A stretch of 64,000 nucleotides of DNA, from contig JAICYU010000001.1 in assembly GCA_025934025.1 (NCBI GenBank), forward strand, positions 587 to 64,586. The letters run 5' to 3'. The stretch comes from Terriglobales bacterium (lineage in GTDB: Bacteria; Acidobacteriota; Terriglobia; Terriglobales; Acidobacteriaceae). The notes under the pieces were generated by a model. The model did not search any database. It saw nothing but the letters and a program-made list of their open reading frames with translations, and had not been told where the DNA came from. The position numbers were made by a program, and so were the translations under genes. This document shows, in pieces, positions 8,717-61,973 of the stretch (within the stretch, counting starts at the first letter, position 1; every line of letters begins with the position of its first letter).

Positions 8717-9193
8717 ATGGACTTCCTCTTCACGCCCTGGCGATATGCCTATGTCACCGGCCAGGAATCACCCTCCGGCTGTCTTTTCTGTGGACTTTTG
8801 CGGCGAGGAAACGACGAGAGCAGCATGATTGTCCACCGCGGACAGCACTGCTTCGTGATGCTTAACGCTTTCCCGTACACCTCCGGGCATGTGATGTTGG
8901 TCCCATATCAACACACAGACGAGATCCAGAAACTGGATTCGGCTGCAGCGACCGAAATGATCACAACAGCTCAGAAAACTGAGGGCATTTTGCGCGAGCT
9001 TTACCATCCCGACGGGTTGAATCTGGGCATGAACCTGGGACGCGCTGCCGGCGCCGGCGTCGCCGACCACATCCATCTGCACATGCTGCCGCGCTGGGTG
9101 GCCGACTCCAATTTTATGAGCGTCGTGGGTGAAACGCGCGTGCTGCCGGAAGATTTGCACACGACTTACCGGCGCATTAGAGAGAAGTTCTAG
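8717..9193 (+). CDS. HIT family nucleotide hydrolase/transferase
   Basis: The track ORF is 8567..9193, and the ATG at 8717 gives MDFLFTPWRYAYV. The histidine triad is present (GVADHIHLHMLPRW) along with NAFPYTSGHVMLVP. Confidence 0.8.
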   Translation: MDFLFTPWRYAYVTGQESPSGCLFCGLLRRGNDESSMIVHRGQHCFVMLNAFPYTSGHVMLVPYQHTDEIQKLDSAAATEMITTAQKTEGILRELYHPDGLNLGMNLGRAAGAGVADHIHLHMLPRWVADSNFMSVVGETRVLPEDLHTTYRRIREKF

Positions 9194-9654
9194 CCTTTGC
9201 GTGATTTCATAGCCGCCATCACCGCTTCAGCGTGCTCTTCCGGCTTCACACCGTTGATGATTGCCGAAACCGTTCCTTGCGGACTAATCACGAACGTTGT
9301 GCGGTCAATCCCCATATATTTTTTGCCGTACATGCTCTTCTCCTTGAGCACGCCGAACTTTTTGGCCACGGCTTTGTCTTCATCGGCCAGCAAGGAATAG
9401 GGAAGGTCGTACTTTTCCTTGAATTTCTTCTGCGCCGAGGGCTTGTCACCGGAAATGCCCAGCACTACCGCTCCGGAGCGCTGAATTTTTTGAAATGCGT
9501 CGCGGAACCCGCACGCTTCCAGCGTTCAACCGGGAGTGTTTGCCTTGGGATAAAAAAACAGCACCAGGTCCTTGCCGCGGTAGTCCTTCAGCGAAACGCT
9601 CTTGCCCTCTTCATTGACGAGCGTAAAGTCAGGGGCTTTATCATTAACTTGCAT
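9190..9654 (-). CDS. bcp: thiol peroxidase Bcp/PrxQ (peroxiredoxin) with in-frame TGA at the peroxidatic position (candidate selenocysteine)
   Basis: One frame of 155 codons runs from the ATG at 9654: MQVNDKAPDFTLVNEEGKSVSLKDYRGKDLVLFFYPKANTPG[TGA 9528..9526]TLEACGFRDAFQKIQRSGAVVLGISGDKPSAQKKFKEKYDLPYSLLADED... The track reports only the C-terminal 91 aa (9190..9465). The family motif is FYPKD.TPGCT.E.C. Confidence 0.7.
9497..9516 (-). promoter_or_regulatory. SECIS-like hairpin downstream of the in-frame UGA
   Basis: The minus strand reads UGA ACGCUGGAA GCGUGCGG-GUU-CCGC(G)ACGC. The stem is 8 bp with one bulged G and starts 10 nt after the UGA. The G/U apical loop lies about 20 nt from the UGA. 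Confidence 0.5.
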
Positions 9655-9677
9655 AAGTTTTACGGGTTAAAGATCTC

Positions 9678-10892
9678 ATGAATTTATATCGCAGAAGTTC
9701 ATTTGCGGCCAGCCTGCTGATTGTGCTCACCCTGCTGGCGATCGCGCCTTCCTTGGCGCAGCGGCAGAAAGCCCATAAGCTGCGCGCAACGGCACTGCTG
9801 GAGTTAACCACCAGTCCGAAAGGCATCATCAGCTCGCGGCTCACGCCGATTGTGATCCTGGACGATGGCCGTTTTAACGATGCCAGCGTGTACAAGGCGA
9901 GACCGCGTCCCATGGCGGCCGAGATTGGCGTAGTGTACGAAGCCCAGAAATCGGGCGTGCCGGAGGGTTATGTGACCATCACGGGCGCAGCGATGAACGG
10001 AGGCTTGTGGACCGCGATGGGCAAATGGCAATCGGCGCAACAGCTCGCAAAGAAAGAAGCTCCCACCCCGACGCCTCCGAACAGTGAAGATGACCGCCCG
10101 ATTCTGCACCGAGGCGATGCTTCAGCCAATTCACCCGCTTCCAATCCTTCTGCAACACCTGCACCGCAAACAGCGTCCACGCCGGAGCCGCAAGTCACGC
10201 CCGTGCCGGAAGCAGAAGGCGATGACACCGGCCGGCCTATCTTGCGGCGGCGGGCCCCCAACGCTGGAACCACAGCAACTCCGGAGTCATCTCCTTCACC
10301 CACGCCGCAGTCATCGCTCACTCCCAAACCAAAATCGGTTACGCCCGGCACCGAGATCATGGTTGCAGTTTCTGATAATCAGCCCTCAGACGAGCGTTCA
10401 TATCTCTATCAATGGAAGCCCGGAGAGGAGCAGCAGATGCAGGTAAAACTGCGTCGTCTGGCCCTGGCCCAGCTTCCGCCGGAAAACGCCGCACTCGAGG
10501 ACAATGCGCTGCAAAATGTGCTGATCCGTTCTTTCGACCTTGATCTGACGAATGAGCCCGTGATGGTCTTAACGGCAGAGGTCCCCGGCAGCTATCTGAC
10601 TCCAACCAAGAAGACGACGTCGCCAAAGTTCGTTTCGCGCTACATCACTCTGATTGCCCGCGGCGACTACGAGCAGAACCTGCAACGGCTGGCTGTGAGC
10701 ATTACTGATTCTTCACGTCTCGATGTTGCGCCCCGTCTTGAGCTGATTGACGCAGTTGACGTGGACGGTGACGGCTACGCCGAACTGCTGTTCCGCGAAT
10801 ACGGCTTCGATCAAAAGCAGTTTGTGGTCTATGCAGTCGGCCGCGGAACGGTCACCAAGCTTTTTGAAGGCGCCGGCGGGCCGCGGAAGTAG
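9678..10892 (+). CDS. secreted hypothetical protein with Pro/Thr/Ser-rich linker and C-terminal FG-GAP-like motif
   Basis: The signal peptide is MNLYRRSSFAASLLIVLTLLAIAPSLAQ. A low-complexity linker (PTPTPPNSEDD..PSATPAPQTASTPEPQVTPVPEAEGDD..SPSPTPQSSLTPKPKSVTP) follows. The C-terminal region contains DAVDVDGDGYAELLF. Confidence 0.6.
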   Translation: MNLYRRSSFAASLLIVLTLLAIAPSLAQRQKAHKLRATALLELTTSPKGIISSRLTPIVILDDGRFNDASVYKARPRPMAAEIGVVYEAQKSGVPEGYVTITGAAMNGGLWTAMGKWQSAQQLAKKEAPTPTPPNSEDDRPILHRGDASANSPASNPSATPAPQTASTPEPQVTPVPEAEGDDTGRPILRRRAPNAGTTATPESSPSPTPQSSLTPKPKSVTPGTEIMVAVSDNQPSDERSYLYQWKPGEEQQMQVKLRRLALAQLPPENAALEDNALQNVLIRSFDLDLTNEPVMVLTAEVPGSYLTPTKKTTSPKFVSRYITLIARGDYEQNLQRLAVSITDSSRLDVAPRLELIDAVDVDGDGYAELLFREYGFDQKQFVVYAVGRGTVTKLFEGAGGPRK

Positions 10893-10969: not shown

Positions 10970-11656
10970 ATGGAACGAGACCTGCGCAAATCACGCAATT
11001 CAAAAGGGTTAACTCAGAGTGAAGTTGCGGTCAAGCTAAGGGTTACTCAGGCGTATATATCAATGCTGGAAAAAGGGGAGCGCCAGTTGTCAGCGAAACA
11101 ACTCCGCGCTCTGGTGGATCTTTACGGACTTTCTCCAACTGCGCTCTCACTTACCACGCGTAAGACCAGGAAAAAAGTTGATAACAAGGAAATTGCTGTT
11201 CAGCTTGCTGCGCTCGGCTATCCGGGATTCTCCTACCTAAGTAAGCTCCGGCCACGCCAGAACCCGGCGAAGGTCCTAATGACGGCCCTTACAAACGATA
11301 ATCTGGAAGCGCGTGTAGCCGAGGGACTGCCTTGGCTCGTCTATACCTATAGCGACTTAAACTGGAGCTGGTGTGCTGATCAAGCGAAAGCCGCAAGTGT
11401 GACAAACCGGCTGGGGTTCATCCTGACTCTGGCGAGAGGGCTTGCGGAACTTCATGGGAATACGACAACAGCAGCGGTTCTGAGCGATATCGAAGCTCGC
11501 CTCAAACCAGCCGTGCTTTTGCGGCCGCAAACACTTTGCCGTGAACGCATGACCCAGGCCGAGCGACGCTGGCTCGAGACTCACAGGAGTGCCCAAGCCT
11601 TGGAATGGAACGTTCTCTCAGACATTTCGAGCCAATCTCTGGTCCATGCCAGCTAG
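10970..11656 (+). CDS. XRE-family helix-turn-helix protein with about 160 aa C-terminal domain
   Basis: The N-terminus (LRKSRNSKGLTQSEVAVKLRVTQAYISMLEKGERQLSAKQLRALVDLYGL) is a classic HTH_XRE. The region is visibly more A/T-rich than its neighbours. Confidence 0.75.
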   Translation: MERDLRKSRNSKGLTQSEVAVKLRVTQAYISMLEKGERQLSAKQLRALVDLYGLSPTALSLTTRKTRKKVDNKEIAVQLAALGYPGFSYLSKLRPRQNPAKVLMTALTNDNLEARVAEGLPWLVYTYSDLNWSWCADQAKAASVTNRLGFILTLARGLAELHGNTTTAAVLSDIEARLKPAVLLRPQTLCRERMTQAERRWLETHRSAQALEWNVLSDISSQSLVHAS

Positions 11657-12194
11657 TGTTCCTTCCGAACCATGGCATTCGTTTCTCAACGACGTTGATG
11701 CCTTACTGCACAGGGAAGTGCTGCTTCATTGTTTGGGCGGATTCGTGATCGCGCAAATTTACGCTTTGCCGCGGCCCACGGTTGACGTAGACACGCTGGT
11801 GATTGTTCCCGGCGAGGAATCAAAGAACCTGATATCGAACGCGGGCAAGGGCTCAGAATTGCACCGGAAATACAAGGTGTACCTGGATTTGGTAACTGTT
11901 GCTGATGCTCCTGAGAATTACGAGGCCCGGCTCACTGAGATGTTCGTCGGAGCGTATCAGCATCTGCACCTTTTCGCTCTCGATCCCTATGATCTGGCAC
12001 TGGCGAAACTGGGACGCAATAGTGAACGCGATCGCGAAGATGTGCTTCGTCTGGCGAGAAAAACCCCGTTTGAGTTAGACTTGCTGAAGCAGAGATATGA
12101 AGAAGAACTCCGCCCTTACATTGCGAACCAACAGCGGAACGATTTAACCGTGGAATTGTGGATGGAGATGATTGCAGAAGACCGTGGTCAGTGA
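11646..12194 (+). CDS. nucleotidyltransferase-fold protein (DUF6036/MNT-like)
   Basis: The ATG at 11646 overlaps the upstream stop by 11 nt. LHCLGGFVIAQIYALPRPTVDVDTLV fits the hG[GS]..x..D.D minimal nucleotidyltransferase motif. PYDLALAKLGRNSERDREDVLRLA follows. The DUF assignment is from memory. Confidence 0.6.
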   Translation: MPASVPSEPWHSFLNDVDALLHREVLLHCLGGFVIAQIYALPRPTVDVDTLVIVPGEESKNLISNAGKGSELHRKYKVYLDLVTVADAPENYEARLTEMFVGAYQHLHLFALDPYDLALAKLGRNSERDREDVLRLARKTPFELDLLKQRYEEELRPYIANQQRNDLTVELWMEMIAEDRGQ

Positions 12195-60397: not shown

Positions 60398-60988
60398 TTA
60401 ATAAAAGAGATACTTTCTCCACTTCAGGTCAGAGCGGCCGATCATCCGCATTATGTGGCGGCTGGTGTGGAGTGTAAACGGCCGCGGCTCCTTGAGCAGC
60501 CGCATGGAAGTTTCCAGCAGCAGATGGTTTCCCTTTTTTCGGTTGCATGGATGGCAGCAGGCCACCAGGTTCTCCCATGTGGAGGACCCTCCGCGCGAGC
60601 GCGGAATTACGTGATCCAGAGTCAGCTCACCGGACGGCAGCACCAGGCCGCAGTACTGGCAGGTATTGCGGTCACGCAGCAGGATGTTCTTGCGGGAAAG
60701 AGCGCGAGTCTGGTGCGGAATCCGGCGATACTCCAGCAGCCGGATCACCGAGGGAATCCGCATGGCAATACGCGCCGCATGGAGGTAATGGCCGTTCTCC
60801 TCCTCCGGCATGGCCAGCCCCTTCAAGACCAGCACAATCGCCCGGCGCGCTGCGCAGATATTGATGGGCTCGTACGAGGCGTTCAGCACCAGGACGGGCG
60901 TCTGCATGACCGGATTTTTCCGTTGCGGCAGGTCCGGCGGGATTTCGGGATGGCGGTGCTTGCTTTTTCCTGCGTTCCTCTCATGCAT
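60398..60988 (-). CDS. HNH endonuclease family protein
   Basis: The HNH/zinc motif is [45 protein letters not shown]. The ATG at 60988 overlaps the comF stop (ATGCATGA). An alternative ATG lies at 60907. Confidence 0.75.
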
Positions 60989-61973
60989 GGCCCTGGGTTC
61001 CTCCAGCAGAAGCGGCGGCGGAGAAACTGATCTCTCGCACGGCTTCTTTTGTGGCTCTGGCAACAGTCGCCACATAAACTTCTTTAGCGCCGGCGCGAAG
61101 CAGCACGCGGGCACATTCCCCCGCCGTGGCTCCGGTGGTCATCACGTCGTCAATCAGCAGAATCGTGCGCTGGCGGATGCGCGCGCGATCAACCACGCGA
61201 AACGCGCCGCGTAGATTGGCCCGCCGCTGATGCCGCGTAAGGCCGGTCTGCGACCTGGTTTCACGCCGCCGAACCAGAGAAGTAGCATCCAGTTGGATGC
61301 TTGCTGCTGCCCCGCGGCTTCGGACAAAGCTACGCGCGATCTCCTCCGCCTGGTTAAATCCACGGTTCTTGCGCTTGCCCTCCCATAATGGAACCGGGAT
61401 CACCACCAGCGATTGGTGCACCGGCAGCCCGGCGGCAGCATGCGCAATGTAGCGCGCGAGAAGGGGCGCAGCCGACCGCACATGCTGATACTTGAAGATG
61501 TGGATAAAATCGCGCAACGCGTTTTCATAAGCGCCGTACGCAACCGCTCGCGCGAACGGCGGTGGAATGCGGCGGCACATGCCGCACAGAGGCTGCGCTT
61601 CGGCTGAGATGCGCTGCGCCAAAAGCCGCTCGCCGCAAACGCTGCAAAGCGCCCCATCAATTGGTTCGATTTTAGCGAGGCAGGTCTCGCACACTGGCAG
61701 CGTTGAAATTTTAGTAAGAGGCGACTGGCAGATGCGGCAGTCCGAAGGAAACAGGACAGAGAACAGGCTTTCAGCCGCGTGCTGCGCGGCGCGGAAGATT
61801 CCCGGCTTGTGAGGCCCTAAATCAACCCGGGTTAGGTCACCGCTACTGCTGAAGACGACCCTCCTTGCGATACAGCATGCAGGATTGCGTGGCCTAAGTA
61901 TAGCTGTGTTGCAGGCGAGGTGCAATGAAGAATCGGCCATCCGGCAGATCGGTTCATCTGCCCATCGGTTCAT
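60981..61973 (-). CDS. comF: ComF family protein (phosphoribosyltransferase domain)
   Basis: The zinc-finger N-region is [26 protein letters not shown], and the PRT motif is [14 protein letters not shown]. The start is very uncertain (61973 or 61940), and the product is longer than typical ComF proteins. Confidence 0.7.

Follow-up and report, generated by a model that had tools for sequence, protein, structure and literature searches.

Peroxiredoxin (Prx; PF00578, motif T-x-x-U, where U is selenocysteine, Sec) is an established bacterial selenoprotein family (PMC13188914, PMC1794560), and Acidobacteria are among the phyla in which selenoproteins were reported, with three families (Zhang et al. 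2006, PMC1794560). The same 2006 catalogue contains Prx sequences from Anaeromyxobacter dehalogenans (entry A. dehalogenans_1, ...FFYPKANTSGUTQEASDFRD...) and from Geobacter metallireducens (...FYPKDSTPGUTKEANGFRD...) (PMC1794560). The locus described here is a bcp/prxQ gene with an in-frame UGA at the codon of the peroxidatic Cys, very probably decoded as Sec. It was found in a stretch of 64,000 nucleotides (nt) from a Terriglobales bacterium (Acidobacteriota; GenBank assembly GCA_025934025.1, contig JAICYU010000001.1, positions 587 to 64,586 of the forward strand), which is called the window below and to which all coordinates refer unless another contig is named. A first-pass annotation of this DNA had remarked that Sec-containing Prx proteins were already a known class, in agreement with the reports cited above (PMC1794560, PMC13188914). 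The features of the locus, including the resolving Cys and a hairpin of the Sec insertion sequence (SECIS) type with which its codon overlaps, are as follows.

9190..9654, minus strand: complete, putatively Sec-containing bcp/prxQ gene (ATG 9654..9652, 154 sense codons, TAG 9192..9190)
9526..9528, minus strand: in-frame UGA at the CP (peroxidatic) codon of the P-x3-T-x2-C motif, predicted Sec43
9511..9513, minus strand: UGC codon 48 for the resolving Cys (CR), five residues past Sec; it also makes up nt 16-18 of the putative SECIS stem
9526..9654, minus strand: N-terminal fragment of 42 amino acids (aa) in the standard open reading frame (ORF) listing, a gene-finder artefact of taking UGA as a stop
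9190..9465, minus strand: C-terminal fragment of 91 aa in the same listing, starting at an internal GTG, likewise a gene-finder artefact

The first-pass annotation had described one frame running from the ATG at 9654 and broken by a single TGA, which fell exactly on the peroxidatic Cys while the resolving Cys was kept. The minus strand was read again and all sequence details hold: the sole interruption of the frame is the TGA at 9528..9526 (codon 43), in the protein context ...LVLFFYPKANTPG-TGA-TLEACGFRDAF..., and both the alignment on the P-x3-T-x2-C motif and the presence of Cys48 agree with that description. Profile and structure searches were run with U replaced by C. The protein matched Pfam family AhpC-TSA (PF00578) with E = 2.2e-42, residues 3-131 covering profile positions 1-123 of 124, and passed the cut-off of the NCBIfam equivalog for Bcp, the thioredoxin-dependent thiol peroxidase (NF006960; 161.9 bits versus 140). 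Its nearest solved structures were Bcp proteins (5enu, 3e-36; 5iph; 3gkk). Invariant columns in an alignment with 18 homologues were P36, T40, position 43 (UGA in the window) and R118, and Cys48 provides the CP-x4-CR spacing. The locus is a single intact gene of the Bcp/PrxQ subfamily, and the product is predicted to be a thioredoxin-dependent thiol peroxidase in which Sec takes the place of the peroxidatic Cys.

The window protein was 50% identical to the A. dehalogenans_1 Prx over its full length and 45% identical to that of G. metallireducens, with U aligned to the TGA in both. It shares with the published Sec-Prx proteins the Bcp-type fold, the length, the FFYPKANT(S/P)G-U-T-x-E-A context, the peroxidatic Sec position and the existence of Sec/Cys pairs with ordinary Bcp proteins. 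However, the hosts of the published proteins are anaerobic Deltaproteobacteria and Clostridia, whereas the window belongs to the soil Terriglobia of the Acidobacteriota. The window protein also has U-x4-C; at the last position, Anaeromyxobacter and Geobacter have S or N, and some members of the acidobacterial clade have R, S or H. Compared with Cys-type Bcp/PrxQ proteins (NF006960; 5enu; Xanthomonas campestris Bcp, 3gkk/5iiz), the motif, the catalytic Arg and the CP-x4-CR spacing are the same, but UGA stands in place of UGC/UGU and a SECIS hairpin lies within codons 47-53. PrxU of Eubacterium acidaminophilum (NF040737) and Prx-SUH (NF045827) are also Sec members of the peroxiredoxin superfamily; they form separate subfamilies, to whose models the window protein scored 48.1 bits against 270 (PrxU) and 35.9 against 298 (Prx-SUH). 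The gene is best described as a predicted new acidobacterial member of the known Sec-Prx family, and it brings no new mechanism to light.

Conservation of the TGA was evaluated among orthologues taken from the best 80 matches of a species-representative genome scan and the best 80 of a metagenome scan. By motif scan, 55 loci had TGA as the homologous codon; two Candidatus Angelobacter metagenome-assembled genomes (MAGs; L006 and L025), read by hand, carry it as well, giving 57 orthologous loci with 58-88% aa identity to the window protein. All four Candidatus Angelobacter genomes recovered have the TGA. Assemblies that bear Sec-bcp include DASTJB01, DASXMN01, DASSEH01, DASTCT01, CAWEGO01, CAVRWH01, CAVWLH01, CAWIEG01 and CAWGDB01. 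Save for one, the genomes were labelled Acidobacteriota/Terriglobia (Candidatus Angelobacter, Candidatus Sulfotelmatobacter, Terriglobales and uncultured Acidobacteriaceae). Homologues from sister lineages are Cys forms with TGC or TGT at codon 43, so that the Cys/Sec pairs which the first-pass annotation had proposed to look for among orthologues do exist. In a neighbour-joining tree, every TGA form fell into one clade, with several Cys forms nested within it. The locus without an acidobacterial label is L022 (DATJAI010000024.1, 'Candidatus Binatia bacterium'), the sole such case among the Sec-bcp loci; its Bcp sits among acidobacterial sequences in the tree, and either mis-binning or horizontal transfer may be responsible.

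One alternative is that sequencing or assembly turned a TGC or TGT, codons only one base away, into TGA by mistake; the first-pass annotation had named re-sequencing of 9526-9528 as a check. Fifteen contigs of the same species, assembled independently (14 Logan run assemblies and one from ENA) and found by exact matches to the fragments of 42 and 91 aa, were available for this comparison. They differ from the window by 0-5 single-nucleotide polymorphisms elsewhere in the gene, and 15/15 have TGA at codon 43. Since several of these contigs differ at 1-5 other positions, they represent separate strains and are no copies of one sequence. The error explanation is refuted by these assemblies, and its probability is negligible.

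A second alternative is that the locus is a pseudogene which acquired a nonsense mutation at its active-site codon. Translation with table 11 does yield two fragments, the same split that public gene calls show. A pseudogene would be difficult to reconcile with the occurrence of the same TGA in 57 orthologues whose synonymous sites are saturated. Other disruptions, which the earlier annotation had named as the sign of a true pseudogene, were absent: exactly one in-frame stop was present in 50/50 full-length TGA forms, none of which had a further stop or a frameshift. When the window gene was compared with its 17 closest relatives, the median ratio of nonsynonymous to synonymous substitution rates (dN/dS) was 0.09 upstream of the TGA and 0.07 downstream, with dS about 1-2. 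Because synonymous sites are saturated while dN/dS remains low past the TGA, the downstream part must be translated and constrained; purifying selection acts downstream of the UGA. Together with a constraint on the RNA next to the TGA (see below), these data effectively refute the pseudogene explanation, which hardly retains any credibility. Reassignment of TGA throughout the genome was likewise considered and rejected, TGA being an ordinary stop that ends 12 of the 30 confident genes of the window.

The first-pass annotation had also pointed to a SECIS-like hairpin downstream of the UGA. The sequence was located at 9516..9497, where it forms the following elements.

9497..9516, minus strand: bacterial SECIS-type hairpin inside the coding sequence, based on folding and comparative constraint
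9506..9508, minus strand: apical loop GUU; its G is nt 21 if the U of UGA is nt 1, and nt 4-20 (17 nt) separate UGA and loop

The hairpin consists of the 5' strand GCGUGCGG (9516..9509), the loop GUU (9508..9506), CCGC (9505..9502), a bulged G (9501) and ACGC (9500..9497). The stem thus has 8 bp, which a one-nucleotide bulge divides into an upper and a lower half of four bp each, and begins 9 nt past the UGA. Its minimum free energy (MFE) is -11.5 kcal/mol, and the mean of 56 Sec forms is -11.3. The bacterial SECIS consensus asks for an apical loop of 3-9 nt, an upper stem of 4-16 bp, a G within the first two loop positions (usually as G[G/U]) and an MFE of -7.5 kcal/mol or lower (PMC13188914). 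The hairpin agrees with 4/4 constraints from that source, with an upper stem of 4 bp, a loop of 3 nt that opens with GU, a spacing of 17 nt and the MFE given above. It also fits another description, in which the stem measures 6-8 bp and the conserved G of the loop follows the UGA at about 20 nt (PMC4605307). As in the bSECISearch model and in the SECIS of Escherichia coli fdhF, the structure lies within the ORF just after the UGA, with a small loop starting with GU, a loop G at about 20 nt and a bulge in the stem. Its primary sequence is unrelated to that of fdhF, however, and its loop of 3 nt tops a stem which starts 9 nt past the UGA; the stem of the fdhF element starts 11 nt after the UGA.

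Comparative data revealed a constraint at the RNA level. Among 50 distinct Sec-form sequences, G21, U22 and U23 were invariant, and the proposed pairing was satisfied in 91.8% of cells, as opposed to 15-60% when the 3' partner was slid along. Codon use at positions 47-53 was almost fixed in the 56 TGA forms (GCG 50/56, GGG 54/56, TTC 54/56, CGC 52/56, GAC 53/56 and GCA 44/56), and codons 44-46, directly after the UGA, vary freely. Mean synonymous codon entropy of the Sec forms was 0.30 bits at codons 47-53 versus 1.23 bits in the remainder of the gene; the corresponding values for 20 close Cys forms were 0.99 and 1.14 bits. Compensatory changes were observed at two pairs, G17:C27 being replaced by A:U in L024 and G20:C24 by A:U in L129 and L130. 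Hairpin conservation and covariation, also named in the first-pass annotation as worth checking, were found as synonymous constraint in TGA forms only and as these two compensatory pairs. The RNA-level constraint on the hairpin is specific to the UGA forms and lends indirect support to a predicted role of the hairpin in SelB binding and read-through.

A conserved UGA, a SECIS and purifying selection constitute the standard bioinformatic criterion for Sec, and on this basis the locus very probably is a true bcp gene that encodes Sec and carries a functional bacterial SECIS. We infer that Sec is the residue inserted, that SelB binds the hairpin, that the catalytic cycle follows Bcp chemistry and that the Sec machinery is encoded elsewhere in the genome. 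Under this model, the UGA at codon 43 would be recoded during translation instead of terminating it. The hairpin 9 nt past the UGA would serve as the bacterial SECIS; SelB would bind it through its C-terminal winged-helix domains and bring Sec-tRNA(Sec) to the A site. Catalysis by the finished protein would begin with an attack of the Sec43 selenolate on the peroxide, yielding a selenenic acid, which Cys48 may then resolve into an intramolecular selenenylsulfide by the atypical 2-Cys chemistry of Bcp (CP-x4-CR), and thioredoxin would finally reduce this bond.

A number of observations weigh against the Sec interpretation. Insertion of Sec and insertion of Cys at a SECIS-dependent UGA are indistinguishable from sequence alone. 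Furthermore, ARAGORN detected no tRNA-Sec across the 64 kb of the window or in any of 17 related loci, 40 ORFs of the window scanned with NCBIfam models included no selA, selB or selD, and the flanks of the fetched Sec-form loci were likewise devoid of selA, selB, selD and tRNA-Sec. As for the hairpin, its fold in the window sequence taken by itself is marginal (z = -2.0, 11/200 shuffles folding equally well), so that its significance rests on the comparative data. Covariation is sparse, amounting to two pairs in three sequences, and its score does not rise above that of shuffles because the stem is nearly invariant. Rfam gave no match, either for the window at the gathering threshold or for 9100..9760 at E <= 10, although Rfam may lack such a family.

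The modest z value and the few covarying pairs, along with the high conservation of the peptide across the family, would suit an explanation in which the hairpin is a by-product of the EACGFRD peptide and of local GC content, read-through depending on something else. Peptide conservation alone was nevertheless rejected as the origin of the hairpin, since Cys forms with the same peptide vary in their codons. The 21 Cys forms with an identical EACGFRD peptide use GCC/GGC/TTT instead of GCG/GGG/TTC, and their fold is weaker (mean -6.8 kcal/mol versus -11.3 for the Sec forms). In addition, the trough in synonymous entropy at codons 47-53 is confined to TGA forms. Only two Cys forms, L095 (TGT, 1903-1947 of its contig) and L098 (TGC, 233-277), retain the exact, full hairpin GCGTGCGGGTTCCGCGACGCA; both are nested in Sec clades, as recent conversions predict, and they appear to be recent Sec-to-Cys conversions bearing a 'fossil' SECIS. 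Substitutions at codon 48 (C/R/H/S) are also stem-preserving or stem-re-registering: with UGC changed to CGC the formerly bulged G becomes paired, and CAC comes with a compensating CGU. A hairpin arising as a mere by-product is, in view of these data, very unlikely.

Another possibility is that the UGA is read through, with or without the help of the hairpin, but that the residue inserted is not Sec: Cys could be supplied by a tRNA-Cys resembling tRNA(Sec) (selC*), and Ser or another residue by an opal suppressor of the allo-tRNA type. Acidobacterial allo-tRNAs, as possible nonsense suppressors, and selC* tRNA-Cys opal suppressors from other phyla have been described (Mukai et al., PMC5389517), and the Sec machinery was not seen in the window. 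However, selC* has not been reported in Acidobacteria, and most of the allo-tRNAs tested were inactive or had other anticodons (PMC5389517). General opal suppression would harm the window genes that use TGA as their stop (12 of 30). A conserved hairpin of the SelB type at the canonical distance is needed for Sec but not for suppression dependent on EF-Tu. Finally, Ser, Trp or Gly at CP would inactivate the enzyme according to established Prx chemistry, yet purifying selection is strong. We consider insertion of a residue other than Sec unlikely, and Sec remains the preferred residue in what follows.

The location of the Sec machinery was approached through additional searches. Tblastn with SelA and SelD (approximate E. 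coli queries) against all loci gave a SelD in L051 as the sole match; this is a Cys-form locus of Flavobacteriaceae, and the match is irrelevant. Outside the window, an exact-protein look-up of the same species returned only contigs of at most 10 kb. Solibacter encodes SelA and SelB, and with its SelA as query (from the supplement of PMC1794560) the 120 best matches were all relatives at least 72% identical, the few with names belonging to Solibacter, Bryobacteraceae and 'Acidobacteriia'. A search with SelA among representatives, followed by cluster and contig look-ups, led to SelA in a distant acidobacterium and in the unrelated MAG JAJDWW01, neither of which corresponded to a Sec-bcp MAG; housekeeping proteins of the distant acidobacterium are 52-60% identical to those of the window. 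In the SelA loci of JAJDWW01 (L186:17375-17419, L185), a gene of the HesB-like type (PF01521) lies about 8 kb from selA, HesB-like proteins being a known selenoprotein family.

Codon 48 varies among the Sec forms. Among 56 of them, the residue was Cys in 35, Arg in 16, Ser in four and His in one. Loci in which the homologous codon was compared include L011, L018, L019, L021, L023, L024, L026, L029, L030, L117, L129, L130 and L159. With the exception of L117 (Cys97), the 19 full-length Sec forms lacking Cys48 had no other Cys within residues 1-141, which would make them '1-Sec' enzymes. Taken together, these observations allow a reading in which Sec-Bcp is ancestral in a large clade of soil Terriglobia, comprising Candidatus Angelobacter, Candidatus Sulfotelmatobacter and many uncultured Acidobacteriaceae, with several Sec-to-Cys reversions and with the SECIS stem channelling the residues available at codon 48. 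This reading is tentative, and we place it somewhat below even chances. If it were true, RNA structure would shape the evolution of an active site, leading from 2-Cys-like U-x4-C forms to 1-Sec forms. To our knowledge, soil Terriglobia, which are largely aerobic, are not thought of as selenoprotein users.

That gene callers would mishandle the locus had been anticipated by the first-pass annotation, and this was borne out in two ways: Logan and ENA gene calls break it into the 42 and 91 aa fragments, and JGI calls render the TGA as W. Trp at the catalytic position ('TPGWT') was present in 18 of the 120 best database homologues, and all those checked were JGI calls on short contigs. The codon behind this Trp was TGA in both contigs fetched (L001:827-829, L002:503-505); the TPGWT entries are translation artefacts of Sec codons, stored as full-length 'peroxiredoxins'. 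The proteins concerned are P0001-P0006, P0009-P0011, P0013, P0017, P0018, P0020, P0023, P0035, P0062, P0064 and P0068. Separately, in P0075, encoded on an 852 nt contig from ENA, the peroxidatic residue is Arg (TPGRT); its codon is presumably CGA, one base from TGA. As a consequence of split or Trp-translated calls, counts of peroxide-defence capacity and of selenium dependence are too low for the abundant soil Acidobacteriota. The Sec interpretation implies that this organism and a broad clade of Terriglobia decode Sec and require selenium for one thiol peroxidase. The interest added to the known family is modest and lies in the breadth of the Terriglobia clade, in the putative fossil SECIS of Cys revertants and in the position of the resolving-Cys codon within the SECIS stem.

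The remainder of the window was surveyed for comparable features. The apical motif of the SECIS had 49 matches versus 39.6 ± 6 expected, and it was exact only at the bcp site. Other ORFs of the window that could be extended by reading through a single TGA were just neighbouring genes in the same frame and two stretches of non-coding appearance, and a promoter and terminator scan of 9000..9900 yielded nothing informative. The gene next to bcp is the following.

9678..10892, plus strand: ORF of 404 aa with no family assignment (sub-threshold match to an FG-GAP repeat only)

This ORF is divergent from bcp, its start lying 23 nt from the bcp start codon, and it is found directly upstream of bcp in nearly all acidobacterial Sec- and Cys-form loci examined. 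Such synteny at Sec and Cys loci supports the orthology of the bcp genes compared. At 10970..11656 (plus strand) an HTH_3 (Xre-type) protein is encoded, followed by an overlapping DUF6036 nucleotidyltransferase-like ORF (11589..12194, plus strand). This pair resembles toxin-antitoxin pairs in type and also occurs in the same-species contigs L178-L180. Farther away, an ORF of 238 aa (60398..61114, minus strand), located directly downstream of a ComF-family gene, contains an HNH-nuclease region with weak matches to IscB and Cas9d (1e-15 and 5e-12), far under the cut-offs; public calls give an HNH protein of 196 aa at this position.

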